Shown: positions 4,787-46,831 of the stretch, piece after piece
How positions within the stretch are numbered: the first letter of the stretch is position 1
Layout of the letters: each line of letters opens with the position of its first letter
Origin: Thiohalomonadales bacterium
GTDB taxonomy: Bacteria; Pseudomonadota; Gammaproteobacteria; RBG-16-57-12
Reading direction: 5' to 3'
NCBI GenBank assembly: GCA_050295955.1
Contig: JBNKQQ010000033.1
Location: 76,988 to 140,987 of the forward strand
Length of the DNA: 64,000 nt
Translations under genes and position numbers: made by a program
The notes under the pieces: model-generated
The model's input: only the letters and a program-made list of their open reading frames with translations
What the model was told of the DNA's origin: nothing
The model's database searches: none

Positions 4787-6328
4787 ATGCAACTGACTCC
4801 ATCGGAAATCAGTGAACAAATTAAAAACCGCATTAAAAACTTCGAGGTGACTACTAGCGCATCTAACGAAGGCACCGTAGTTAACATTGCGGACGGTGTA
4901 GCAACTATCCACGGTCTATCAGACGTAATGTCTGGTGAGATGATCGAGTTCCCTGGCGGCGTTTACGGCATGGCTCTTAACTTGGAGCGTGATGCGGTAG
5001 GTGCGGTAATTCTGGGTGCTTACGAAGGTATCTCTGAGGGTGACACTGTTAAGTGTACTGGCCGTATCCTGGAAGTCCCAACTGGCGACGCTCTGCTGGG
5101 CCGTGTAGTTGATGCTCTGGGTAACCCAATCGATGGTAAAGGTCCAATCGAGACCTCTACTTCATCACCTGTAGAAAAGATTGCTCCTGGTGTAATCGCA
5201 CGTCAATCAGTTGATGAGCCAGTGCAAACTGGTCTGAAAGCGATCGACTCAATGGTGCCAATCGGCCGTGGCCAGCGTGAGCTGATCATCGGTGACCGTC
5301 AAACTGGTAAGACTGCTGTTGCAGTTGATGCGATCATCAACCAGAAAGATTCAGGCATCAAGTGTGTATACGTAGCAATCGGCCAGAAGGCTTCTTCTAT
5401 CGCTGCGGTAGTACGTAAGCTGGAAGAGCATGGCGCACTGAGCAACACTATCATCGTTGCTGCGACCGCTTCTGATTCTGCAGCAATGCAGTTCATCGCG
5501 CCTTATGCTGGTTGTGCGATGGGTGAGTACTTCCGTGACAACGGTGAAGATGCACTGATCGTATATGATGATCTGACCAAGCAAGCCTGGGCTTATCGTC
5601 AAGTATCTTTGTTGCTGCGTCGTCCACCAGGCCGTGAGGCATATCCTGGTGACGTATTCTACCTGCACTCACGTCTGCTGGAGCGTGCTTCACGCATCAA
5701 TGCTGACGAAGTTGAGAAGCTGACTGGTGGCAAAGTAACGGGTAAGACCGGTTCTTTGACTGCACTGCCTATCATCGAGACTCAAGGTGGTGACGTATCT
5801 GCATTCGTACCTACTAACGTAATCTCGATTACTGATGGTCAGATCTTCCTGGAAACCGACCTGTTCAACTCCGGTATCCGTCCTGCGATCAACGCAGGTC
5901 TGTCTGTATCCCGTGTAGGTGGTGCAGCACAAACCAAGATCATCAAGAAGCTGGGTGGCGGTGTTCGTCTTGACTTGGCTCAGTACCGTGAACTGGCAGC
6001 ATTTGCACAGTTCGCTTCTGACCTGGACGATGCGACTCGCGCGCAGATCGAACGTGGTCGCCGCGTAACTGAGCTGATGAAACAGAAACAGTATGCACCT
6101 CTGTCTACTGCAGACATGGCATTCTCTCTGTTCGCCGCTAACGAAGGTTTCCTGGACGACGTTGATGCAGCGAAAATCGTAGACTTTGAAGCAGCAATGC
6201 ACGCCTACGTTAAATCTAACGCCGCTGACCTGGTTGCTGAAATCAACTCTACTGCGAACTTCAATGACGAGATCGCAGCGAAGATGACAGACGCTCTGAC
6301 TCAGTTCAAAGCTAACGGCACCTGGTAA
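4787..6328 (+). CDS. atpA: F0F1 ATP synthase subunit alpha
   Basis: It has the Walker A GDRQTGKT and full-length alpha-subunit similarity. Confidence 0.97.
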
Positions 6329-6343
6329 TCGGGGGTAGAAACG

Positions 6344-7210
6344 ATGGCAGTCGGAAAAGAGATACGCACTCAGATCAAGAGCATTGAGAACACCAAGAAA
6401 ATTACTCGCGCTATGGAAATGGTGGCGGCGAGTAAGATGCGCAAGGCTCAAGATCGTATGGCGTCATCTCGTCCCTACGCCGAAAAGATGCGTCAAGTGA
6501 TTGCTCACTTGGCGCATGCACATCCTGAGTACAAGCATCCTTATCTTGAGGAGCGTGAACAGGTGAAGCGTGTTGGCTTCATTATTGTTTCAAGTGACCG
6601 TGGTCTCTGCGGCGGTTTGAACAATAACCTGTTCCGTAAAGTGCTTAAGGATATGAAGGCATGGGAAGAGAAAGGCGCAGAAGTTAATCTAGGCATTATC
6701 GGCCAGAAGGCTAACTCGTTTTTCCGTGGCATCGGTGGAAACATTACTTCTCAGGTAGCTAACCTGGGTGATGCCCCACATATCAATGATATTGTGGGTG
6801 CAGTTAAGGTAATGCTTGATGCCTATGATAACGGTGAAATCGATCGTCTGTTCGTGGTGCATAACAACTTTGTTAACACCATGACTCAAGACCCACAGGT
6901 TTCACAGCTGTTGCCCGTCGCTTCGGAAGAGATTAACGAAGAGATGACGCACCACTGGGATTACATGTACGAACCAGATGCCAAAGAGGTTTTGGATGAC
7001 CTGATGGTTCGCTATGTAGAGTCCCTGGTATACCAGGGCGTTGTAGAGAATGCTGCTTGTGAGCAGGCTGCGCGTATGGTTGCAATGAAAGCTGCAACTG
7101 ATAATGCGGGTAACCTGATCAGCGATTTGAAATTGGTCTACAACAAAGCCCGTCAGGCTGCGATTACTCAAGAAATTTCTGAGATCGTGGCAGGTGCTGC
7201 AGCGGTTTAA
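6344..7210 (+). CDS. atpG: F0F1 ATP synthase subunit gamma
   Basis: The N-terminus has [30 protein letters not shown], characteristic of the gamma subunit. Confidence 0.95.
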
Positions 7211-9199: not shown

Positions 9200-10564
9200 A
9201 TGCAAAAACTCTCTGTTGTGATCCTGGCTGCCGGCCAGGGAACCCGCATGAAATCCCATCTTCCCAAGGTCTTACACTGCGTAGGTGATCGCTCAATGCT
9301 TGAACATGCCTATGACCGTGCCAAAGCACTAAAAGCCAATGACATTCATATCGTGTATGGACATGGTGGTGAGCAGGTCAAAGCCACGCTAGCCCATCTT
9401 GACGCCGAATGGGTACTACAAGCAGAGCAGAAAGGAACAGGTCATGCCGTCGAGCAGGCTATGCCTGCCATCAGTGATGACGAGATGGTTTTGGTGCTAT
9501 ATGGCGATGTGCCTCTGGTCAGAGTTGAAACGCTGCAAGCGCTAGTTGAAGAGGCGAAGCAGAGCGGTTTCAGTTTGCTGACCGCATTCTTGGATAACCC
9601 TACCGGCTATGGCCGCATCATTCGTGATGAACAGGGGGCTGTAACACGCATTGTTGAGCAGAAAGATGCAACCCCTGAAGAATTGGCGGTGACGGAAGTT
9701 AATACCGGCATGCTGGCGGTTCAGGCAGGACGCTTACGGAAATGGATTCATGCGCTGGATAACAACAATGCCCAGGGTGAATTTTACCTGACAGACGTAA
9801 TTGGTATGGCGGCTACCTCGGGTGTCAAAATTAATACGGTCCACCCTACAACGATTGATGAAACGCTTGGCGCGAATAACCGGGTTCAGCTAGCGGAACT
9901 GGAGCGTTTTTTACAGCAACGTATCGCCAACGAATTAATGCTGGCAGGCGTTACTCTACGGGATCCGAACCGACTGGATGTTCGTGGAAATCTAACCGCT
10001 GGACAAGATGTCGAGATCGATATCAACGGCTTGTTTGAAGGCGAAGTGAAACTTGGTAATAACGTAAAGATTGGCGCTAACTGTATCCTGCGCAATTGCA
10101 CTATCGGTGATAATACAGTGATTGAAGCGAACTCACTGATCGAGAAAAGTGAAGTGGCCAGTGATTGTCATATCGGGCCTTTTGCGCGCTTGAGACCTGA
10201 TAGTAAACTTCATTCCGGTGCTAAGATAGGCAATTTTGTTGAAGTGAAGAAGTCCGTCATTGGTGCTGGCTCTAAGGTCAATCACCTAAGTTATATCGGA
10301 GATACAACCATGGGAGCCAACGTCAATATTGGTGCGGGTACCATCACCTGTAACTATGACGGCGTGAATAAATTCCAAACAATAATTGGGGATAATGCCT
10401 TTATCGGCTCCGACAGTCAGCTAGTTGCCCCAGTTGAAGTGGGCTCAGGCGCGACGATCGGCGCGGGTACCACATTAACCCGAAATGCCCCTGCTGATAC
10501 ACTAACCCTTAGTCGTAGTAAGCAGAAAAGTATAAACAGTTGGCAACGTCCAACTAAGAAGTAG
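9200..10564 (+). CDS. glmU: bifunctional UDP-GlcNAc pyrophosphorylase / GlcN-1-P acetyltransferase
   Basis: The N-terminal nucleotidyltransferase has LAAGQGTRMKS, and the C-terminal part is a left-handed beta-helix of hexapeptide repeats. Confidence 0.95.
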   Translation: MQKLSVVILAAGQGTRMKSHLPKVLHCVGDRSMLEHAYDRAKALKANDIHIVYGHGGEQVKATLAHLDAEWVLQAEQKGTGHAVEQAMPAISDDEMVLVLYGDVPLVRVETLQALVEEAKQSGFSLLTAFLDNPTGYGRIIRDEQGAVTRIVEQKDATPEELAVTEVNTGMLAVQAGRLRKWIHALDNNNAQGEFYLTDVIGMAATSGVKINTVHPTTIDETLGANNRVQLAELERFLQQRIANELMLAGVTLRDPNRLDVRGNLTAGQDVEIDINGLFEGEVKLGNNVKIGANCILRNCTIGDNTVIEANSLIEKSEVASDCHIGPFARLRPDSKLHSGAKIGNFVEVKKSVIGAGSKVNHLSYIGDTTMGANVNIGAGTITCNYDGVNKFQTIIGDNAFIGSDSQLVAPVEVGSGATIGAGTTLTRNAPADTLTLSRSKQKSINSWQRPTKK

Positions 10565-10580: not shown

Positions 10581-12413
10581 ATGTGCGGGATCGTTGGTGC
10601 AGTGGCTGAACGTGATGTCACACCCATTTTGATAGAAGGGCTACGACGTCTGGAGTATCGAGGCTATGACTCTGCCGGGGTGGCAGTGTTGGATGAAGAG
10701 GGTTGTATCCGTCGAACCCGTGTTAAAGGGAAAGTGGCAGGATTGGCAGAAGCTATGCCAGAAGGCTTCAAAGGGGCAACGGGGATTGCCCATACCCGCT
10801 GGGCAACCCATGGTGAGCCTAGCCAAAGCAACGCCCACCCTCATATCTGCCGTGATCGTGTTGCGGTAGTGCACAACGGCATTATCGAAAACTACGAAGC
10901 CCTGCGAGAAGAGCAGAAAGCGCAAGGTCACCGCTTCACCTCCCAGACCGATACCGAAGTGATCGTACATCAGGTCTACAACTACCACAGTGACAACGGA
11001 CAGGATCTACTTGCTGCTGTGCAGAGTACTATCAAAGACTTACGTGGTGCCTATGCACTTGGTGTCATCAGCCATGACGAGCCAGGTCGTTTGATTGCCG
11101 CCCGAAGTGGCAGCCCACTGGTGGTTGGTGTCGGTATTGGTGAGTATTTCATTGCCTCCGATGTAGCCGCACTGCTTCCGGTAACCCAGCAATTTATCTT
11201 CCTGGAAGAGGGGGATGTAGCGGATATTAGCCGTGATGCCATCACCATCTATAACAAGCAGGGTGAGCAGGTAGAACGTCCTCTAAAGCGAAGCGAACTC
11301 ACCGCAGATGCTGTAGAGCGCGGTGAATTCCGCCACTACATGATAAAAGAGATTCACGAGCAGCCACGAGCCATTGCCGACACCTTAGAAGGGCGTATCT
11401 CAGAAACCCGTTTGCTGGAAGAGAGTTTTGGACCTAAAGCGGCTGAAATGCTCAACGGTGTTGAGCATGTCTACATCATCGCCTGTGGCACCTCATACCA
11501 TGCAGGTATGGTAGCTCGCTACTGGATTGAATCCATGGCGCGCATACCCTGCACTGTTGAAGTGGCCAGCGAGTTTCGCTATCGCAATCCAGTTGTACCC
11601 AACAACTGCCTGGTAATTTTTATCTCCCAGTCCGGTGAAACCGCTGACACCTTGGCCGCTTTGCGGGAGATCAGCGAAATGGGTATCCAGCGGACCCTGG
11701 CGATCTGCAATGTGCCAGAAAGCTCATTGGTGCGGGAAGCGGCACTGTCATTGATGACACGCGCAGGCCCAGAGATCGGTGTGGCATCCACTAAAGCATT
11801 TACCACCCAGCTGGTTGCTTTGCTGATGGTGACCATTGCGATTGCACGCCGTGGAAACCTGACAGAGCCGCAGGAAGCCGCCATCGTTAAAGAGCTGCGT
11901 ACACTGCCACGCAAAATAGAAGATGCACTACAGCTGGACAAAGCCATCTGTGAAATATCAGAACAGTTTGCAGATAAGCAACATGCCCTGTTTTTAGGGC
12001 GTGGCAATCAATATCCCATCGCCATGGAAGGGGCGCTAAAGCTAAAAGAGATCTCCTATATCCATGCGGAATCCTATCCTGCAGGCGAGCTGAAACACGG
12101 GCCATTAGCATTGGTAGATTCAGAAATGCCCGTCATCGTTGTTGCCCCCAATAACGAACTGTTAGAAAAGTTAAAAGCCAACATGCAAGAAGTAAAAGCC
12201 CGTGGCGGTAAGCTATTGGTATTTGCGGATCGCGAAGCGGCAATGGAGCAGGATGAAGGAATCCAAGTGCTGGATGTAGCACCAACAGATGACATCATTT
12301 CACCCATCATCTTCTCTGTACCGCTACAGCTGCTTTCCTATCACGTAGCTGTGCTGAAAGGCACAGATGTTGATCAGCCACGCAACTTAGCTAAGAGCGT
12401 AACTGTGGAGTAA
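10581..12413 (+). CDS. glmS: glutamine--fructose-6-phosphate aminotransferase
   Basis: The N-terminus MCGIVGAV has the Cys2 of a Ntn amidotransferase, and there are two SIS domains. It ends in the conserved VTVE. Confidence 0.97.
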
Positions 12414-12414
12414 G

Positions 12415-12476
12415 GGCGGGCACTGCCCGCCGGCATTGGCTGAATCAAGAGCCTTAGAGGTGATACATCTCTAAGG
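12415..12476 (+). terminator. glmS terminator (two hairpins, second followed by a T-run)
   Basis: The sequence gggcgggcactgcccgcc is followed by gccttagaggtgatacatctctaaggctttttt. Confidence 0.8.
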
Positions 12477-12530
12477 CTTTTTTATTGCCCAATTATCATT
12501 ATCAAAATAGAGGTACCCATGCTTTTATTT
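12415..12530. repeat. direct repeat copy A1 (glmS terminator region), paired with 14093..14215
   Basis: It is about 115 bp and roughly 85% identical to 14093..14215 by hand alignment. The shared stretch is cattgg(c/t)t(g/-)aatcaagagccttagaggtgat(a)catctctaaggctttttt...atcaaaatagaggta. Confidence 0.8.
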
Positions 12531-12829
12531 ATTTCCACCACGATAGGATGTGTGCCACTAGGTGACGCTGAATAGATGCTCGGTTCTGCCGGTACGACCA
12601 GCCCACTTTTGCAGGCTAAGCCTGCCATCTACTCCACAAATGGGTTGCCATACAAGGAAACAGACAAAGCATATCAATGGCATTGCATATATTCATGATT
12701 GCGCTACGCTATAAATGTATAAAGTGGACAAAAAAAGAGACATATATTTTCAAGTAAATATATAAGTAACTGAATTTTAATATTTTATTTAAAATAAAAA
12801 GTGGACATTTTTAGGGTCATATATCAGTA

Positions 12830-13987
12830 ATGGGTAGCAAGCAACAGCATCGTGTAGAAACTGATCGTTTCGGGCCTTTTACCTTTCAAGTTGGCGTTGA
12901 TACGTTATCTTTGGAGAGTTTGCTATTGCGTGTGGATGATGCCCACCAACGTTTCAAAAGCTCCCCCTTATCTCAAGTGGCTAATCGCCTGGAAAAAGAG
13001 GTGGTGGTTAGCAGTATCTTTGGCACCAATACCATAGAAGGTGGCACCCTTTCGATGGAGGAGACAGAGCAAGCACTGGATCTCCCGCCCTCTCAAGTAC
13101 AAGGTATTGAACAGCGCCGAGCTATCAATTTAAAGTGTGCCTATGAATTGGCACAAACCGCAGCAGTGCAACCAGGCTGGCAACTGAATATCGATTTTAT
13201 AAGAGAGATTCATGCCGCAGTGACTGATCAACTCCCCCATGAATACAACATGCCAGGAGTACTTAGGGATAATCCCAAAGGGACCATGACACGTGTAGGC
13301 AACCAAGAGCATGGAGGTGTTTACAAACCCCCTCAATATGGCAAAGATGTGGAAAGCCTGTTGAAGCATTTGATTGAATGGCATCAGCAGTTGATAGCAC
13401 AGGGAGTCTCAGTATTAATACGTGCACCGCTGGTGCATCTCTATTACGAATTGATCCATCCTTTCTGGGATGGTAACGGCCGGGTAGGCAGGGTGTTAGA
13501 GGCAACGTTACTACAGGCAGAGGGTTATAAATACGCACCCTTTGCCCAGGCGCGTTACTATCTTGAGAACATTCATCACTACTTCAGCCTATTCAATGCT
13601 TGTCGCAAGCAGGCGGAGAAAAACGCAGAAACTCCCAATACCGCGTTTGTTGCTTTTTTCCTTGAAGGGATGTTGAGCAGTATAAATACCCTGCATGACA
13701 GGGTGAACGCATTAATCAGCCTGATCCTATTTGAGAATGAAATAAAACGCCTGCACGATGAAAAGATCATAAACACCCGGCAATATGCCATCGTCACACA
13801 AATTCTTATAGCCGGAAAGCCGGTTTTTCTACCAGAATTAAGAAAATCTCCTTGGTACCAAGCGCTCTATATCAAGCTAACAGATAAAACCAAACAGCGG
13901 GACCTGAAGCATTTGCGAGAATTGGCATTGGTGAGATTAGATAGTGCTAATCGGTTATGGCCTGGATGTGTTGAAGAGGAGATGTAG
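12830..13987 (+). CDS. Fic-family protein (class II, with N-terminal inhibitory motif)
   Basis: It has the Fic active-site motif HPFWDGNGRVGR and an upstream TNTIEG matching the (S/T)xxxE(G/N) inhibitory helix. It is preceded by an AT-rich promoter-like region. Confidence 0.85.
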   Translation: MGSKQQHRVETDRFGPFTFQVGVDTLSLESLLLRVDDAHQRFKSSPLSQVANRLEKEVVVSSIFGTNTIEGGTLSMEETEQALDLPPSQVQGIEQRRAINLKCAYELAQTAAVQPGWQLNIDFIREIHAAVTDQLPHEYNMPGVLRDNPKGTMTRVGNQEHGGVYKPPQYGKDVESLLKHLIEWHQQLIAQGVSVLIRAPLVHLYYELIHPFWDGNGRVGRVLEATLLQAEGYKYAPFAQARYYLENIHHYFSLFNACRKQAEKNAETPNTAFVAFFLEGMLSSINTLHDRVNALISLILFENEIKRLHDEKIINTRQYAIVTQILIAGKPVFLPELRKSPWYQALYIKLTDKTKQRDLKHLRELALVRLDSANRLWPGCVEEEM

Positions 13988-14092
13988 ACGTTATCATTTT
14001 AGGGAGATGAATTGATATCGCTATATTTGGTGGAGCAGAGTGACGGTATTCAAGTATTGGATGTCGACCATCCTTGTAACTTAGTGGAGTAG

Positions 14093-14215
14093 GGGGGCAT
14101 CGCCCACCAGCATTGGTTAATCAAGAGCCTTAGAGGTGATCATCTCTAAGGCTTTTTTGTTGCTCGAAGCACCTCATAAGCTGCCAAATTTTCACCATCA
14201 AAATAGAGGTATTCA
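14093..14215. repeat. direct repeat copy A2 (second copy of the glmS terminator region)
   Basis: It is a near-duplicate of 12415..12530 and includes the same terminator hairpin gccttagaggtgatcatctctaaggctttttt. Confidence 0.8.
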
Positions 14216-14380
14216 AGGTGATATTTTTTAAGGTAATGTCTAGGGTAAGGGATTTTGTTCACCACCATTGCGATGAGGGAGATGATGGGCACGGGGAATA
14301 AGGATGGTGATTTTCTAGTATTGTGGGAGCCTCCTGCTTGCAGGCGATTGGGTTTGTTTCAGCAAACGCTGGAGGAATTG

Positions 14381-14690
14381 TATCACTGCGTGATGGTTTG
14401 TATTTATCGCTAGCGCGATGGAGGGGATGTCACTGCGTGACGGTGAATTGATACAGGGTTTCGCCCCCGCGCGACGAGTTCATTTTCTGTAACGCGACAG
14501 AAAACGAAACCAAAAGAACGCGCCCGAAAATACAGGTCACAAACAACGCGACTTCCCTCAGTTCTCGCTACGAATGGTACTACTGGCAACTGATTCGGGA
14601 CAGACATGCCATCCGCTTAACCCATTCGTAGCTGTGAGCCTCGGCTGCATTTAAACGGGATGTGAAAGGCATTTTATGTTTTGCTAATGC
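14381..14690. repeat. left inverted repeat (IR-L) of the STAND/recombinase element
   Basis: Its reverse complement aligns with 19685..19930. There is a ~100-bp near-identical core (cgacgagtt.attttctgtaacgcgacagaaaacgaaaccaaaagaac...cccgaaaatacaggtc) plus further similar flanks. The outer end carries two copies of tcactgcgtga, at 14383 and 14430. Confidence 0.8.
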
Positions 14691-14754
14691 AAAAGAAGAA
14701 GAGCGGCTTCGCGGTGTTTAATGGCTGGTTCTACTTCAGAGCGGACAAATTGAT

Positions 14755-14815
14755 GTAGGGTGGGCATCGCCCACCAGCGAGATGGAACGGTGGGCCGTGC
14801 CCACCCTATATGGCT
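14755..14815. repeat. REP-like palindromic element (tagggtgggcatcgcccacc ... ggtgggccgtgcccacccta)
   Basis: It is a long near-perfect palindrome. Related half-sites occur at 14093-14112 and 36536-36570. Confidence 0.6.
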
Positions 14816-15012: not shown

Positions 15013-18000
15013 ATGAATAGTCTCTGGGCTGTCCCAATATCGTCAGTTATTTCGCTTAGCCCTGAGCGGGCTGTAGATGTAATCCGTGCTATTCTCCGGG
15101 CAGAATGTGCCTACGCCAAGCTAGGCCCATCGGCATTAACTATTTCCGATAGACTAATGACCCCAGATGGCGGTATCGATGCAGAAGTCAACACATCCCA
15201 TGGACAAATCCCGGGAGATTGTATTTTTCAATCTGGTATTACCGGATTTCAGATTAAATCAGGAACCACATTCAAGCCTTGGACATCGAATTCAATCAGA
15301 GGTGAATTACTTAATAGTAAAGGGGAGTTATGCTCTGAGGTTGAGAGGCTTCTTAAACGAAAAGGTCACTACTCGATTATTTGCACTGGCCACGATCTGA
15401 CACCAGAGCAGCGTAATGATGCAAAAGCTCTGATCGTGGCTGTTCTGGCAGAAAAAGGATATGAAGAATACGAGCAGATTGTCGATGTTCTCGGAGCAAG
15501 TCAAATCGCAGAATTTTCTGAGCGCTATCCTGGAATAGCATCTCTATTGACGATTGATCCCGTTCAGGAAGCCTGGACTCTTGATGAGTGGCGACATGAC
15601 GCTCATATGACAAACGCATTCGAAGAGTCTCCGAAACAGACTGAAATAATCTCCCATATCCGCGCAGGCCTGTTGGGAGAAACTAAACATATTCGTATTC
15701 TTGGGGAAGCTGGCTTAGGTAAGACTCGAATCGTTCTTGAGTCATTGAAAGATGAGACCACCTCACCCTATGTTCTTTATATACAGCATGGTTCTCAGTT
15801 TGGTCAGACAAAACTTTTTCGCCAGTTACTGAAATCTGGTCATGACAAACCACTCATATTGGTCATAGATGAACTTCCTGAGAGCGAACTCTCAGATATA
15901 TGGAGGCATCTAAAGCCACGCTGTGGTCATTTGAAAATTGTTTCAATGGATCATGGACGAGATGAAACACGCGATGAAGAAATTGATCGAATAAATACGC
16001 CATATCTGTCAGACGATACAATTAAAAAGATACTTGCCCATCGCGTTGGGGAATCACCAGAGCTAGATCGGTGGATCAAAATCTGCGAAGGATCACCCCG
16101 AGTAGCCCAAGCCGTTGCTGACAATCTGTGCGCTAATCCCGCCGACTTATTAAAGCCACCAGCTACGATACCCATTTGGACAAGGTTTCTTCATGGATAT
16201 GGAAGCAGGGATGAAGCAAGTGCAAGGCAAATTGATTGTGTTGCACAGCATTTAGCACTATTCAGTCGGTTTGGTTATGAAGCTCCAGTTGGAGAGGAAG
16301 CAGCGTATATTGCTGAACTAATTCGCAATATTGACCCAACTATTGGCTGGGCTCGCTTTCAAGAAATAGTACAAGACCTTCGTGCGCGAAGAGTGTTACA
16401 AGGTAGTCGAACGCTATTTTTCGTTCCCAAGGCCCTGCATATCTATTTGTGGAAACAATTTTGGGAGCGTTATGGTCGAGGGTTTGATTTTACTCGAACA
16501 TTTTCCTCCATGCCGGAGTCTCTGCATACTTGGTTTATGAATATGTTCAAATATGCGGGTGAGGCTGATACTGCTCATGTTATTGATGATATTCTTAACT
16601 TAAAAGGCATTTTCTCTCAAAATGAGGTCATAAAATCAGAAAAGGGATCTCAGTTTCTAGCCATTCTAGCAGAGGCTAGTCCTGCTTCAGTATTGAGACT
16701 TCTTGAAGCTACTATTGGAAAATGGACTAACGAAGAATTGTTGAAATTAAGGGGAAATAGACAACATTTCGTCTGGACACTTGAGAAGATTGCGGTTTGG
16801 CCGAGCTACACTGTTAGAGCAATGCAACTGCTAATCCGATTGGCGGTTAATGAAAATGCTAGAAATTCTAATAACTCTACGGGAACGCTACTTGGCCTCT
16901 TTCGCATAGGCCCTGAGTGGGCTGCAACGGAATCCTCCCCTGATGCAAGACTCCCAGCTTTTCTGAAACTTCTTCGAGCTCAGAGTGATGCTGAGCGACA
17001 TCTTGGACTTAAAGCTGCAGAAGCATCGCTCGAAACCCGTGGCATGGGGTTTAGAACCGTTGGCCCTGAGTATCAGGGTTTAAAAGAAAGAGCAAAATTA
17101 TGGATGCCCGAAACATATGGTGATTGGTGGCAAGCTCAGTTCGTTTATTTTCAGACTTTGGTTAATGAAACAAAAAATTGGCCATCTCATCTTCGTCCTG
17201 AAGTTTGTAATGCATTACTTAATGCTGTTGAACACCAGATAAGAATACCACTATGTACGGAGCTAGCTTTTCAGGTACTAGATACACTTGTTAATGATGA
17301 TGCAATGCTGCCAGAAAAGTTAAATAGTTTCTTTTGGCATTGGAGAGAATATAAGGATGATGGTAAACATCCTGCAATAACAAAGAGACTACAAATACTT
17401 GAACGCCGCTACACGAGGCGTGACTTAGTAAGTCGATTTAATCGTTATGTGCTTGATGTGGATTGGCTCGAGTGGGAAGAGGGGCGTAGAGAGCAGAGAG
17501 GAAAGACTAGATCACGTGCAAAGGTAATTGTAAAAGTTTTGGCTCGCCGTATAGCGCGATCTCCTGAGAAGTTTAATGAAATTCGTCATCTTATTACTCC
17601 AGAGAAAAGTGCTCATGGGTTATGGTTTTTTGGAGAGCAGCTTGCAAAAAACGATGCTGATAGAATTTTTTTACCTCAACTCATTGAGGCTACCCTTACG
17701 GCTAAACACCAAACCTGTTTATACGGTTATCTTTCTGAATTAAGGAAAGACAATGAAGAGCTATACACTACAGCTATTAATGGTTTTCTTGATTCGGAAA
17801 GCACTGCTTGGTTAGGGGGACATATTGTACTTAGCTCCGATTACGATGATGATTTGTTTGTGAAGTGCTTGAATGTATTGCGTAAGGAATGGATTTCTCC
17901 CCAAGAGTTCAGCTCACTTCGATATGGGAAGTCAATAGATCACGTTCCTAAGGAACGGCTAGAAAATTTATTTCAACAATTAAATTCCCGTCAATCTGAG

Positions 18001-18786
18001 GAGTCTATGTGTTTATTGATCGAGTTACTGGACTCGATTCCATTTAACGAGTCCTCTCCAGTTGATTCAAAATTTGTATTTGGAGCGGTATCACGGTTTG
18101 TGCCTGGTGATGAAGGCGCAGAGCTAATGAGGGGATATCACTGGAAAAGTGTATGTCAAAAGTTAATTAAGTGGGATGAAAGCTGTGTATTACCTTTACT
18201 TGACGTTTTGCTTACTAAGATGGGAGACGTATATCGGTTAAGCTATGACTCGGATGTTGAGCCTCTTTCGGCCGAGTTAGTACAAGCAAATCCTTCAGGT
18301 GCTTGGGGAATTATAAAAGTGCATTTCGAAGAGACTCTCCCAAAATGGCGAGGTGATCTATTGAACTGGCTTAAAGGAGGGGTAGGAGGGTTTGAAGAAA
18401 GAGAGACTAGAGGAGTAATAAGGGATTTACCACTTCAGGAAATCCTTGAGTGGATAAATGAAAACCCTGAGTCTAGGGCTGGCCTTATAGCTCATGCTGT
18501 TCCTAGAACACTCGATGACGTAAACGGAGGAGAACTTACACGTGAGTTACTTCGTAAATACGGGCAGCTTCCCGGAGTTCAAAGCGGTATTAGTGCTAAT
18601 TTCCACTCTGGAGGGTGGAGTGGACCTACAAGTGCATATTTGAAACGTAAGAGGGAGAAATTTCGTCGATGGTTGGCTGCTGGATTTGATTATGAGATAA
18701 CTCAGTGGATTGAATCAGAGATTGAATACCTTGACCGAAATATAGAGCGCGAGGAAATTGATGAGGAACGCTCTCGATTCGATTAG
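15013..18786 (+). CDS. Avs-like antiviral STAND NTPase candidate with N-terminal Mrr-like (PD-(D/E)xK) nuclease domain
   Basis: The N-terminus has DGGIDAEV ... GFQIK, an Mrr_cat-like D...QxK motif. It has a Walker A ILGEAGLGKTR and a Walker B PLILVIDELPE. About 800 aa of helical C-terminus follows, which is probably a repeat/sensor region. Confidence 0.6.
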   Translation: MNSLWAVPISSVISLSPERAVDVIRAILRAECAYAKLGPSALTISDRLMTPDGGIDAEVNTSHGQIPGDCIFQSGITGFQIKSGTTFKPWTSNSIRGELLNSKGELCSEVERLLKRKGHYSIICTGHDLTPEQRNDAKALIVAVLAEKGYEEYEQIVDVLGASQIAEFSERYPGIASLLTIDPVQEAWTLDEWRHDAHMTNAFEESPKQTEIISHIRAGLLGETKHIRILGEAGLGKTRIVLESLKDETTSPYVLYIQHGSQFGQTKLFRQLLKSGHDKPLILVIDELPESELSDIWRHLKPRCGHLKIVSMDHGRDETRDEEIDRINTPYLSDDTIKKILAHRVGESPELDRWIKICEGSPRVAQAVADNLCANPADLLKPPATIPIWTRFLHGYGSRDEASARQIDCVAQHLALFSRFGYEAPVGEEAAYIAELIRNIDPTIGWARFQEIVQDLRARRVLQGSRTLFFVPKALHIYLWKQFWERYGRGFDFTRTFSSMPESLHTWFMNMFKYAGEADTAHVIDDILNLKGIFSQNEVIKSEKGSQFLAILAEASPASVLRLLEATIGKWTNEELLKLRGNRQHFVWTLEKIAVWPSYTVRAMQLLIRLAVNENARNSNNSTGTLLGLFRIGPEWAATESSPDARLPAFLKLLRAQSDAERHLGLKAAEASLETRGMGFRTVGPEYQGLKERAKLWMPETYGDWWQAQFVYFQTLVNETKNWPSHLRPEVCNALLNAVEHQIRIPLCTELAFQVLDTLVNDDAMLPEKLNSFFWHWREYKDDGKHPAITKRLQILERRYTRRDLVSRFNRYVLDVDWLEWEEGRREQRGKTRSRAKVIVKVLARRIARSPEKFNEIRHLITPEKSAHGLWFFGEQLAKNDADRIFLPQLIEATLTAKHQTCLYGYLSELRKDNEELYTTAINGFLDSESTAWLGGHIVLSSDYDDDLFVKCLNVLRKEWISPQEFSSLRYGKSIDHVPKERLENLFQQLNSRQSEESMCLLIELLDSIPFNESSPVDSKFVFGAVSRFVPGDEGAELMRGYHWKSVCQKLIKWDESCVLPLLDVLLTKMGDVYRLSYDSDVEPLSAELVQANPSGAWGIIKVHFEETLPKWRGDLLNWLKGGVGGFEERETRGVIRDLPLQEILEWINENPESRAGLIAHAVPRTLDDVNGGELTRELLRKYGQLPGVQSGISANFHSGGWSGPTSAYLKRKREKFRRWLAAGFDYEITQWIESEIEYLDRNIEREEIDEERSRFD

Positions 18787-18904: not shown

Positions 18905-19558
18905 TTAGACCTCTATCCTCTCTGATATTTCTAGTGCATCATCCACCTCAATCCCCAGATACCTGACAGTACTCTCTAGCTTGGTATGACCGAGGAGCAA
19001 TTGAATGGCTCTCAAGTTATGAGTTTGGTGGTAAATCAGCGATACCTTCGTCCTGCGCAATGAGTGAGTTCCATAATCAGCAGGATCTAGTCCTATATCA
19101 GTGACCCACTGCTCAACTATCCTGGCATATTGGCGAGTTGAGATATGAGGTGAATCATGAAAGCGACTTTGAAAGAGATAGTCATCATATTTCAAGGTCT
19201 GATGTGCTATCAGATTTGTTACTGCTATTCTCGTCTGATCAGTGATTTCAAATTGAACAGGCTGCTTGGTTTTCTGTTGCATGATCATGGCTCTTTTCAA
19301 TATAGATAAACCATGTGAGATGTCGCTGACTTTTAGGCTTACTAGGTCACAGCCCCGTAGCTTACTGTCGATGGCTAAATTGAATAGTGCGAGATCCCGG
19401 ATGTTGTTTGCCAGCTGAAGTCGTATGCGAATAGCCCAGATCTCTTGAAGCTTGAAGGGAAGTTTCTGCCCAACGAGCTTTCCTTTGTTCCAAGGGGAAT
19501 GGGGAGATGTTGATAGAGTGCTCATGTTGAATCCTCCATTTTGGTTTAGGGGATTCAA
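18905..19558 (-). CDS. short tyrosine site-specific recombinase (FimB/FimE-size, phage-integrase family catalytic domain)
   Basis: It is 217 aa. It has HSLRRT and LLGHTKLESTVRYL, consistent with the R...HxxR...Y catalytic residues, and it lacks the long N-terminal arm-binding domain of integrases. Confidence 0.75.
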   Translation of the reverse strand: MNPLNQNGGFNMSTLSTSPHSPWNKGKLVGQKLPFKLQEIWAIRIRLQLANNIRDLALFNLAIDSKLRGCDLVSLKVSDISHGLSILKRAMIMQQKTKQPVQFEITDQTRIAVTNLIAHQTLKYDDYLFQSRFHDSPHISTRQYARIVEQWVTDIGLDPADYGTHSLRRTKVSLIYHQTHNLRAIQLLLGHTKLESTVRYLGIEVDDALEISERIEV

Positions 19559-19684
19559 AGTATGGTAAAACAGAGGCTTACTTTCAGAGCGGACGTTCAG
19601 GGATTGTTGATGAACTACGCCTGCTGGCCGCTTGCGGCCATTTAATTTATATTGAAAATTCGCTCTTCTTCTTTCGTGTTAATG

Positions 19685-19930
19685 AAATATAAAATGACTT
19701 TCCTATCCCGTTCCAATGAAGCCGAGGCCCGCAGAAATCCTTGAATTAAGCCTTCGCTTGTTTGAGCGGTATTTGCGACCTGTATTTTCGGGTATGTTCT
19801 TTTGGTTTCGTTTTCTGTCGCGTTACAGAAAATAAACTCGTCGTGTGGGAACGAAACCCCCCATCAATACACATCACGAAGTGATACAAAATCTCATCGC
19901 CATAGTGATGAATTAAAAACATCGCTTACA
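19685..19930. repeat. right inverted repeat (IR-R) of the STAND/recombinase element
   Basis: It is the reverse complement of IR-L. The outer end carries tcacgaagtga and agtgatg motifs that mirror the paired 11-bp motifs in IR-L. Confidence 0.8.
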
Positions 19931-20071
19931 ACGCTTGGTAATTAGATGATATTCCACCCTACACGCCTATATTATGACGTATAATGTATACCCTATAAGT
20001 CACTACTGGGTTTGCTATCTAGTAGTGGTGTGATATCACCCATACTTCTATAAGACATAAGAAGATAACCA

Positions 20072-20302
20072 ATGAAAAAAGTAACCCTCTATACCACAAG
20101 TCGCTGCGAGGTGTGCAAACAGGCAAAGCAGTATTTCAAGAAGCGAAAGATTGCGTTTGTAGAGTTTGATGTTGAAAAGAGTAGTCGAGGAGCAAAGGAG
20201 TTTGCGCGTTATAAGGCACGGGGGGTACCGTTGATTGTGGTTGCTGGTGAGCCTCTTTATGGGTTTGATCGTAAACAGTTTGATGAGCTCTATTTTGAGT
20301 AA
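20072..20302 (+). CDS. glutaredoxin-family small redox protein
   Basis: It is 76 aa with a CEVC (CxxC) motif in a thioredoxin-fold context, as in the Grx/NrdH-like family. Confidence 0.7.
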   Translation: MKKVTLYTTSRCEVCKQAKQYFKKRKIAFVEFDVEKSSRGAKEFARYKARGVPLIVVAGEPLYGFDRKQFDELYFE

Positions 20303-20310
20303 ATGAACCT

Positions 20311-20378
20311 GTCGTGTGGGGGCAGCACCCCATATCAATCCAATGTCATGAAGTGACACTCACCCATCCACAGAAACA
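20311..20378. repeat. third (direct) copy of the element terminal sequence
   Basis: The sequence gtcgtgtggg..cccca.atcaat.ca..tca(c/t)gaagtgaca is about 75% identical to 19848..19915. Together with that copy it flanks the glutaredoxin gene. Confidence 0.6.
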
Positions 20379-20506
20379 TATCAAGTTGAAAATCCTCATA
20401 AAACGACTATCTTCAAGGTAGCTGAGAGTGACTGAGATTCTAATTGTAGACACAGCTCAATATCTGTAGGTAATGAAAAACAAAACGTATCCAGTAGGAG
20501 ATTGGC

Positions 20507-20980
20507 ATGAGGCTTTTGGGAAAGTTGTTAGTGTTGTTGGTCATGGTGTCGGTAGTATCACCGGTGTTGGCGGATAAAAAGAAAGATCCGAAAATGAAAG
20601 CCATTGAGGCTCGTAAAGCTGAGATGACGTTACGTTCATTTAATGCAGGCCCTTTGTTTGCGATGGCGAAAGGCAAGATGCCTTATGATGCAAAAAAAGC
20701 GCAAATGCATGCGGATAATTTAAAGCGCTTATTGGAGGTTAATATGGGGGCGGCTTGGATGCCGGGAACCTCTATCAAAGAGTATGGTGATGATACAACG
20801 GCATTGCCTAAGATCTGGGATACTTGGCCTGAAATTTCTGATTATGGAAAAGATTATGCAAAAGCGGTTAACGAGCTTGCTGAGGTTGCAGGTGATGGGC
20901 AAGATGCCCTTGGTAAAGGGGTTAAGGCGCTAGGTAAGGCTTGTAAAGGGTGTCATGATGAGTTTCGGGAGAAGGATTAA
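20507..20980 (+). CDS. cytochrome c' (class II cytochrome c)
   Basis: It has a signal peptide and a single C-terminal heme motif CKGCH. The ~135-aa four-helix size is typical of cytochrome c'. Confidence 0.75.
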   Translation: MRLLGKLLVLLVMVSVVSPVLADKKKDPKMKAIEARKAEMTLRSFNAGPLFAMAKGKMPYDAKKAQMHADNLKRLLEVNMGAAWMPGTSIKEYGDDTTALPKIWDTWPEISDYGKDYAKAVNELAEVAGDGQDALGKGVKALGKACKGCHDEFREKD

Positions 20981-20999
20981 TTTCTTCTTGGAATAGATC

Positions 21000-21590
21000 A
21001 TGAAAGGTTATTCTTACCAGAAAATTTGGGACCCAGTGACACGATTGTGGCACTGGGTTTTTGCGTTTTCAGTGATTGCCAATTGGAGCATGGGCGAGTT
21101 TATGTCATTCGATACAGTAGAGTGGCATTTCATCATGGGCTACTTCATTTTGGGTCTGATTGTATTGCGTATTGTTTGGGGAATTATCGGCCCATCACCA
21201 ATACGTATCACCACGCTTGTCGCTTCTTCTTTTGGCGTAAAGGCATACTTAAAACGTATGATGAGCAGGCAACCCAGCGGGACAAGAGGACATAATCCGT
21301 TAGGTTCATTGTCCATCATCGCCATGCTTTTGGTGTTTGGTGCACAAGGCATGACTGGGCTGTGTATTGAAACAGAAGATTTTTTCGAGGAAGGCCCGTT
21401 GTATGAGTATGTGTCTGAGGAGACCGCAGAGGAACTATCTCGTTGGCATCATCGGTTGTCAAAAGTCGGACTTGCGTTGGTTTTATTGCATATATTGGCC
21501 GTTCTTTTTTATCTGCTATGGAAGCGTGAAAATTTAATTAAGCCAATGTTTACCGGTTGGAAGTGGGTGAAGCAGATTGATAAAGAGTAA
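21000..21590 (+). CDS. cytochrome b561 family membrane protein
   Basis: It has four predicted TM segments with conserved His, and it is typically paired with cytochrome c'. Confidence 0.75.
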   Translation: MKGYSYQKIWDPVTRLWHWVFAFSVIANWSMGEFMSFDTVEWHFIMGYFILGLIVLRIVWGIIGPSPIRITTLVASSFGVKAYLKRMMSRQPSGTRGHNPLGSLSIIAMLLVFGAQGMTGLCIETEDFFEEGPLYEYVSEETAEELSRWHHRLSKVGLALVLLHILAVLFYLLWKRENLIKPMFTGWKWVKQIDKE

Positions 21591-21745: not shown

Positions 21746-21780
21746 AAAGCCCTAGCCAAAAAGGCTAGGGCTTTTTTGTT
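21746..21780. terminator. bidirectional rho-independent terminator
   Basis: The hairpin agccctagcc-aaaaa-ggctagggct is flanked by A- and T-runs and lies between convergent genes. Confidence 0.75.
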
Positions 21781-21837
21781 GCTGTGTTGAAGAGTGTGGA
21801 TGATTCATCTGCCACGCTCTTTTTACGATTACTGTCT

Positions 21838-46595: not shown

Positions 46596-46831
46596 TACCT
46601 TTTGAGTTACGTTATCTTGCTAACTATATATCTTGTAGGCGGTGGGTGGTGGCAATTAATTGTATCAATTTGTAGTGCTAAACTTTTTCGGATTATTGTG
46701 TCACGAAGTGACACACACATTGTTGAATCATCGCCTGCGAGCAGGCTCCTACAAACAATCTACAAAACCAAAAAAGCCTGCTGAGATTTACAAATCCCAG
46801 TAGGCTTTCTCTAAGCAGTGGAAGTAAAAAC

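Follow-up and report, generated by a model that had tools for sequence, protein, structure and literature searches.

A non-coding unit repeated at the module boundaries of a low-GC island downstream of glmS: possible junction relics of serial growth

We analysed a 64-kb stretch of DNA from a Thiohalomonadales bacterium (GenBank assembly GCA_050295955.1, contig JBNKQQ010000033.1, positions 76,988 to 140,987 of the forward strand; hereafter the window), in which a glutaredoxin gene, grx, stands between two direct copies of a non-coding repeat. Unless stated otherwise, all copy counts and statements of confinement refer to this window. This repeat pair belongs to a set of four copies of a 'junction unit', which stand one at each module boundary of a low-GC island located downstream of glmS. 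We tentatively read the island as one that grew serially and the units as the end or arm sequences of the modules that came in, a reading to which we give a probability of about 45%.

Four copies of one unit

The grx open reading frame (ORF; 20072-20302) encodes 76 amino acids with a CEVC (CxxC) motif at residues 12-15 and matches PF00462 with E=1.2e-12 (48 bits against a cutoff of 22.9), while for the YruB-family model TIGR02196 it reaches E=6.9e-21 and 74.5 bits, below the cutoff of 88.55. As the preliminary description of this DNA had stated, this CxxC glutaredoxin gene is the sole ORF between the two repeat copies. The ~75% identical direct repeat that was described at 19848-19915 and 20311-20378 is real, but those coordinates are ~8 nt out of register and give 56% identity; in the best register, 19827-19887 against 20298-20359, 45 of 62 positions are identical (72.6%). 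The repeat begins at the grx stop codon, ~20 nt to the left of the start first proposed, with a strong part that reaches 19887/20359 and weaker similarity that continues to ~19919/20385. Searched with blastn against both strands of the window, the pair obtained E=0.002, and the similarity was significant in a shuffled-sequence control, the local alignment score of 38 lying ~10 standard deviations above the 15.4 ± 2.3 (maximum 29) of 2000 shuffles.

A further copy, inverted, had been placed in the left arm of a long imperfect inverted repeat (IR-L), and we confirmed it there: 14428-14488 and the post-grx copy have 75.4% identity over 61 nt (E=9e-7). The fourth copy, absent from the earlier account, is degenerate and lies on the minus strand directly after the glmS terminator, where nhmmer detected it with E=3e-4 using a three-copy profile (match 12545-12612) and with E=3.7e-6 using a profile of the two arms of the inverted repeat. 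Profile matches to the unit copies reach 1e-17 to 1e-22 with profiles that were built from those same copies. In their order along the window, the copies are c4 (12519-12612, minus strand), c3 (14395-14494, minus strand; the outer part of IR-L, by nhmmer and arm alignment), c1 (19822-19919, plus strand; the outer part of the right arm, IR-R) and c2 (20294-20385, plus strand; from the grx stop codon to the native promoter region of the cytochrome c′ gene). They form the mirror order (-)(-)(+)(+), in which c1/c2 and c4/c3 are direct pairs and the left pair is inverted relative to the right one. Taken alone, the c1-c2 pair with its E value of only 0.002 would leave some room for similarity by chance, but the match between c2 and c3, the distance from the shuffles and the clustering of four copies within 8 kb reduce that probability to almost nothing, and we regard chance as already effectively refuted.

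Alignment of the copies defines a unit of ~95 nt at its fullest extent, in which a 13-bp dyad (RTCAY-GNA-GTGAY) lies between a U block (AAATGAAC..GTCG..GGG..CCC..ATCAAT) and a 'seg' block (..CATCGC..TAG.GAT.AAT..AAA), with the U side facing inward in every copy. The dyad corresponds to the conserved core first reported, tca(c/t)gaagtga(c/t)a, which is present in the three well-preserved copies but not in the degenerate c4, which reads GTCACCTAGTGGC. The dyad pattern has five exact matches across the window, where 1.08 would be expected even if one mismatch were tolerated; three belong to the well-preserved copies, one is an extra dyad in IR-L (14381-14393) and one stands alone at 46.7 kb. The inner copies have perfect dyads (in c1, ATCAC-GAA-GTGAT at 19873-19885) and the two outermost have broken ones (GTCAC-CTA-GTGGC in c4; GTCAT-GAA-GTGAC at 20345-20357 in c2). 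The outermost base pair of the dyad covaries, being A..T in two sites and G..C in four, which hints at a past constraint on its symmetry.

Pairwise identity across the copies ranges from 54 to 77%. Over a core of ~74 nt it is 66% for c2-c1, 69% for c2-c3 and 77% for c1-c3, and over the full U-dyad-seg length 63%, 66% and 72%, respectively. The most divergent copy in the U half and the seg half alike is c2, which fits a module that brought its own copy rather than a crossover within the dyad, and in the seg block c1 is similar to c3 but not to c2. Given this level of identity and a longest exact word of 10 nt in common between c1 and c2, the events that placed the copies are old. The earlier suggestion that the recombinase site is, or was, active finds no support in view of this divergence, the broken outer dyads and independent contigs that show the same arrangement. 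Look-ups of the cytochrome c′, recombinase and glmS genes returned only contigs of sample SRR36185845, which carry that arrangement at 100% identity and end at 14501, 14509 and 19825 because of a 38-nt exact inverted repeat between the two arms (14482-14519 against 19796-19833). One contig of this sample (L011) starts at 20074, with the last base of the grx start codon, and no repeat in the window accounts for the break, which may be a population variant upstream of grx.

Several other identities for the unit were tried and rejected. Single-stranded DNA folds of the four copies were no better than those of shuffles (z from -0.35 to +1.29), which speaks against an attC-like or otherwise structured element, and Rfam gave no match to the unit at the gathering threshold, with noise only at E<=5. 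Counted by position modulo 3, the mismatches between the inverted-repeat arms number 5/5/5 and 7/7/9, with no period of three as a coding repeat would show, and a 17-codon mini-ORF of two copies is broken in the third. Tandem Repeats Finder (TRF) found no tandem array, and no tRNA or tmRNA target was found in the window. Within the window the unit does not behave as a repetitive extragenic palindrome (REP) or a miniature inverted-repeat transposable element either, as all its copies lie within 12.5-20.4 kb and the bare dyad is all that recurs, at 46700; the concern that the motif might be a ubiquitous REP thus finds no support in the window, where every unit copy falls inside 8 kb. That lone dyad is contained in a perfect 17-bp palindrome, GTGTCACGAAGTGACAC, at 46698-46714, between a cysN-like gene and a nitrilase/CN-hydrolase-like gene and ~110 nt upstream of the latter.

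The island and the duplicated glmS end

The island occupies ~8 kb between glmS (10581-12413, plus strand) and a cytochrome c′/cytochrome b561 gene pair, and its three modules, bounded by unit copies, hold a SoFic-like gene, a PD-Lambda-4_A-like gene together with a gene for a 206-residue tyrosine recombinase, and grx. GC content is 0.38-0.47 over 12.4-21.8 kb, apart from one interval in IR-L at 0.51, compared to ~0.52 in glmS.

The 3′ end of glmS is present twice. Block A (12399-12535, plus strand) comprises the last glmS bases, a GC hairpin (12415-12431) and the glmS terminator with its tail, and block B (14076-14229, plus strand) is a displaced second glmS 3′ end with its own hairpin (14092) and terminator. 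The two are 86% identical over 92 nt (E=7e-22), with 77% over a further 43 nt, and bases 14031-14064 also resemble glmS coding sequence at 12244-12277 (E=0.02). Between the blocks lies the cargo of the first module, a 385-residue Fic-domain gene (12830-13987, plus strand) that matches PF02661 with E=1.8e-13 and the PADLOC SoFic model with E=4e-37. A duplicated 3′ end of the target gene is what tandem integrase insertion leaves, and behind each block, collinear with it, comes a unit copy whose orientation is the same in both cases. The hairpin pattern GGNGGGCANNGCCCNCC occurs at 12415, 14092, 14759 and 14789, plus one probable chance match in the window; the last two are further post-glmS hairpins (14759-14775 and 14789-14805, plus strand) at the inner edge of IR-L, 96% identical to block B over 24 nt (E=4e-4). 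The duplicated glmS end and terminator around the SoFic gene indicate serial accretion at this site, independently of the unit copies.

On the right, the body of the grx module (19920-20293, plus strand) consists of 150 nt of upstream region, with a promoter-like site at 19946-19975, followed by grx. Since c2 starts at the grx stop codon (20300-20302), a single ORF here has a repeat immediately 3′ of it, as an integron cassette does. In the nearest retrievable relatives, whose cytochrome c′ is 76% identical, a sulfatase gene and not grx stands upstream of the cytochrome c′/b561 pair (in the window at 20507-21590, plus strand, with 157 and 196 residues, respectively), a pair that is kept in these relatives without grx. 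Similarity to their cytochrome c′ upstream region begins at ~20386 (TTGAAAA...), exactly where c2 ends. A cassette-like module boundary is supported here. The idea that grx is a separately acquired mini-cassette is weakly supported by the relatives without grx, the edges of c2 and its divergence, and the isolation of the grx lineage; a crossover at the dyad does not fit. Homologues of the protein form a single cluster at 93% identity, followed by the next representative at 56% (50%-cluster level, 1.84 billion cluster representatives), and the grx lineage is thus isolated. Exact-protein look-ups for the grx of the window and for its 93% homologue found no record.

From this arrangement we infer how the island may have grown, with the units as ends or arms of incoming modules. 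The unit would be a conserved end or arm sequence of small modules that accumulated at a glmS hot spot. The grx module (~19920-20385, that is, the upstream region, grx and c2) would have joined at the outer edge of a pre-existing c1, bringing c2 with it, and the SoFic module would have been added on the left together with a glmS end, a terminator and a unit of its own (block A and c4), displacing block B. The copies would have diverged since then and would now be relics of old junctions, not demonstrably live sites. The adjacent 206-residue recombinase is a candidate for the joining enzyme by its proximity only. If the units are true joining sites, the locus would show single-gene defence and redox modules stacking at the glmS hot spot without a transposase, possibly by means of a very small and widespread recombinase family of uncharacterised function. 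For annotation, the locus is useful in that its module boundaries are defined; a new mechanism is not yet demonstrated.

Several observations weigh against this account. Neither simple integration nor simple transposition accounts for the mirror arrangement of the copies. The arms of the inverted repeat, ~330 nt long, are most conserved in their middle and not at their tips, so that on sequence they look more like a duplicated segment than like classical ends. Because a perfect dyad also stands at 46700, beyond the island, the bare dyad is not island-specific. Neither a target-site duplication nor an identical crossover core was found; the tips of the inverted repeat (~14343-14358 and ~19940) are too degenerate for exact placement, and no flanking direct repeat was seen on inspection. 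The step in which incoming modules would carry the unit relies on a single locus, because no second genome with the unit was found in the searched collections. Among genome contigs, the loose pattern ATCAAT-N5-7-TCAYGNAGTGAYA gave at least 117 single matches, all of which we read as chance, and a 29-nt degenerate pattern gave one match in metagenomes, also by chance and inside a coding region; two viral scans for the unit gave no match, and neither did a blastn search of it against plasmids or the BLAST and HMM searches in the other collections.

Competing explanations

The preliminary description attributed the copies to tandem site-specific insertions at one attachment (att) site. Integration of a circle by a tyrosine recombinase produces direct att repeats, whereas here the copies are mirror-arranged and inverted copies flank the segment with the recombinase; the (-)(-)(+)(+) order differs from what tandem integrase insertion yields. 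In the model as first proposed, the copies are att sites of the 206/217-residue recombinase and grx is a 471-bp mini-cassette that it integrated beside the end of the element, at a site that is or recently was active. We consider this unlikely. The enzyme has an intact catalytic set and is encoded ~300 nt from c1, the direct copies c1 and c2 share an identical GAAGTGA inside the dyad, c2 begins at a stop codon as cassette sites do, and in metagenomes, contigs that carry a homologous recombinase frequently break a short way upstream of its gene, which points to a variable junction there. The conserved module of this family, however, ends ~115 nt upstream of the ATG, and the variable junction lies there and not at the unit, while the unit, the dyad and the flanking inverted repeat occur in no comparison locus with a homologous recombinase. 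The copies around the recombinase segment are inverted and not direct, and the 27-46% divergence between copies speaks against recent activity. Standard tyrosine recombinase cores have a 6-8-bp overlap, for which the 5-3-5 dyad is too short, and the c1 seg is like that of c3 and not that of c2, whereas a crossover at the dyad would predict the reverse. What links the recombinase to the repeat is their proximity, and the link is otherwise unsupported.

The inverted geometry led us to weigh the copies as terminal inverted repeats of an element that is itself non-autonomous and was mobilised in trans, with the post-grx copy as a third, outer end in the manner of Tn1721/Tn1722, grx inside the larger element, and c4/c2 as an older outer pair. 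The U side always points inward, every copy read from outside starts 5′-TGT...(A/G)TCAC, the left arm has two dyad modules 47 nt apart that recall the multiple binding sites of Tn7- or Mu-type ends, and the position, downstream of glmS, is the classical Tn7 attachment region. This interpretation is nonetheless quite improbable given that the island has no transposase gene and no detected target-site duplication, that arm conservation peaks mid-arm, that TRF reports no array, and that the glmS 3′ end and terminator recur between c4 and c3, which nested transposition leaves unexplained. A regulatory role, in which the unit is a cis-acting module with the dyad as operator for a dimeric DNA-binding protein, duplicated before grx, cytochrome c′, the recombinase and the PD-Lambda-4-like gene, would account for the perfect dyads of the inner copies and for the covarying outer pair. 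Every unit lies upstream of a gene in the same relative direction, including SoFic (c4), the 1257-residue PD-Lambda-4-like gene (c3) and the recombinase (c1); c1 and c2 stand ~70-100 nt upstream of promoter-like sites for grx and cytochrome c′, and the perfect 17-bp version precedes an unrelated gene at 46.6 kb by ~110 nt. We are doubtful of such a role, since the cytochrome c′ upstream regions of relatives have no such dyad, the similarity runs ~50 nt past the dyad on the U side without a promoter-like element, the distance from unit to start codon varies from 160 to 520 nt, the island holds no candidate regulator, and a promoter scan was not enriched over shuffles. The copies could also be passive relics of segmental direct and inverted duplication of native sequence downstream of glmS, for example by template switching or illegitimate recombination, with no joining or regulatory role. 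Their decay is uniform, without an invariant core and with mismatches spread evenly over the three positions modulo 3, conservation is highest mid-arm, the outer dyads are broken, and the unit occurs in no other genome found. An origin of this kind is improbable, though, as the copies coincide with all four module boundaries, c2 sits exactly between a stop codon and the edge of a native promoter, both diverged lineages of the glmS-end block (A and B) carry the unit at the same place, and the outer pair of the dyad shows a compensatory change.

Compared to known systems, our preferred reading of serially added modules comes closest to tandem accretion of islands at one att site. The SoFic module is flanked by two copies of the glmS 3′ end and terminator, repeats stand at each junction, the cargo is low-GC and of defence type, and a tyrosine recombinase lies at a module edge. 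Unlike such islands, the units here are mirror-arranged and not all direct, two of the three modules lack a recombinase, and the unit is not conserved alongside the recombinase family. With integron cassettes the locus shares a single small ORF followed by a repeat from its stop codon, a recombinase divergent from the cassette side and a variable neighbourhood upstream of the homologous recombinases. However, the recombinase has 206 residues compared to ~320 in IntI-type enzymes and scores E=0.0043 and 16.4 bits, against a cutoff of 265, with the integrase_gron model TIGR02249; the unit has no R″/R′ core (no GTTRRRY in the aligned unit) and no significant hairpin as attC sites do, and copies lie on both sides of the recombinase in opposite orientation. 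The layout IR-L, IR-R, cargo and second direct IR-R-like copy recalls Tn1721/Tn1722, but here a transposase is missing and no target duplication could be detected, the ~330-nt arms have their highest conservation in the interior, and the third copy is only 66-73% identical. As in the FimB/FimE invertases, the recombinase has ~200 residues without an N-terminal core-binding domain and inverted repeats enclose the segment; the invertase model nevertheless matches only weakly (E=9e-4, 19 bits against a cutoff of 222), and these repeats bracket both convergent genes with like-for-like upstream regions, so that inversion would change nothing obvious. In the literature we found no described small-recombinase or glmS defence-island system that matches the locus. 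We give very little weight to a more far-reaching possibility, an integron-like miniature capture platform in which widespread 206-residue recombinases without a core-binding domain would use ~95-bp, double-stranded, mirror-placed U-dyad-seg sites to add and remove single-gene modules (SoFic, grx) downstream of glmS. The locus is an ordinary accretion island with decayed junction repeats, and the mirror arrangement is its one unusual feature.

The recombinase family and remaining features

The recombinase is encoded on the minus strand (18905-19525; 206 residues from ATG, 217 from an upstream TTG) and consists of the catalytic domain only (PF00589, E=1.9e-18). Aligned to XerD (1a0p), its catalytic residues are all in place: R in LRGCD, K in QQKTK, HSLRR, LGH and RY. 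The family of 206-208 residues yielded 8000 matches, with 71-95% identity among the 120 matches listed. We compared loci with homologues of the recombinase from metagenomes, plasmids (including pMOL30 and pLM6) and IMG/VR, ~40 of them with a full or near-full-length homologue, 53-95% identical where full length. In none of these comparison loci did we find the unit, a dyad near the gene or an inverted repeat that brackets recombinase and cargo, and the window is the only positive case.

Upstream of the gene, the leader (19526-19643, minus strand) contains a hairpin that sequesters the Shine-Dalgarno (SD) sequence and, at its outer edge, a GC hairpin (19625-19640), and is kept in close homologues. 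These share only ~115 nt upstream of the ATG, up to an edge that corresponds to ~19643 in the window and lies 12-18 nt before the start of IR-R (19655-19661). Two loci (L001 and L003) have the same recombinase and 3′ flank with two different 5′ flanks, which diverge exactly at the leader edge, and four metagenome contigs (L005, L006, L009 and L010) start 126-168 nt before the recombinase ATG. These observations suggest that a variable junction, possibly the real recombination site of the family, lies ~115 nt upstream of the gene. The SD hairpin is kept by compensatory changes across homologues that are 60-95% identical (GAATCC/GGATTC, GCTCC/GGAGC, AACTCC/GGAGTT), and this covariation retains it even in the plasmid homologues on pMOL30 and pLM6, which suggests that translation of the recombinase may be controlled by the leader. 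SD-hairpin leaders were also seen at ~6960-7000 in both L131 and L132 and at ~7952-7994 in L149-L163.

Elsewhere, one locus (L137) carries a tRNA-Thr gene at 9731-9806 and, ~190 nt downstream, a 90% identical recombinase homologue, between birA-coaX and the mraZ cell-division cluster, an arrangement that resembles a classical small tRNA-linked island. An IMG/VR contig (L142) has two recombinase copies, at 2294-2989 and 4954-5643, that are 78% identical and inverted.

The arms that enclose the second module, IR-L (14378-14711, minus strand) and IR-R (19655-19925, plus strand), were delimited by repeat search and arm alignment, with nhmmer in addition for IR-L. The extra dyad of IR-L belongs to a dyad module at 14373-14397, with a stray 'seg' at 14248-14277. 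Between the arms, the 1257-residue P-loop protein (15013-18786, plus strand) has no Pfam or NCBIfam match and was assigned through PADLOC PDLC03991 (E=5.7e-32); it matches only the A component of PD-Lambda-4, and no obvious partner gene adjoins it. Its distant homologues (20-28% identity) are found on cyanobacterial and haloarchaeal plasmids. Over 12.4-21.6 kb, the ORFs with family matches are Fic, PD-Lambda-4_A-like, tyrosine recombinase, glutaredoxin, cytochrome c′ and cytochrome b561, with no transposase among them.

After the b561 gene, a bidirectional terminator (21746-21783) shares a 19-nt tail with the terminator copy in block B (E=0.02), and GC content rises to ~0.5 just beyond it. The low-GC region may have its true right edge at this terminator, in which case the cytochrome c′/b561 pair would lie inside that region.

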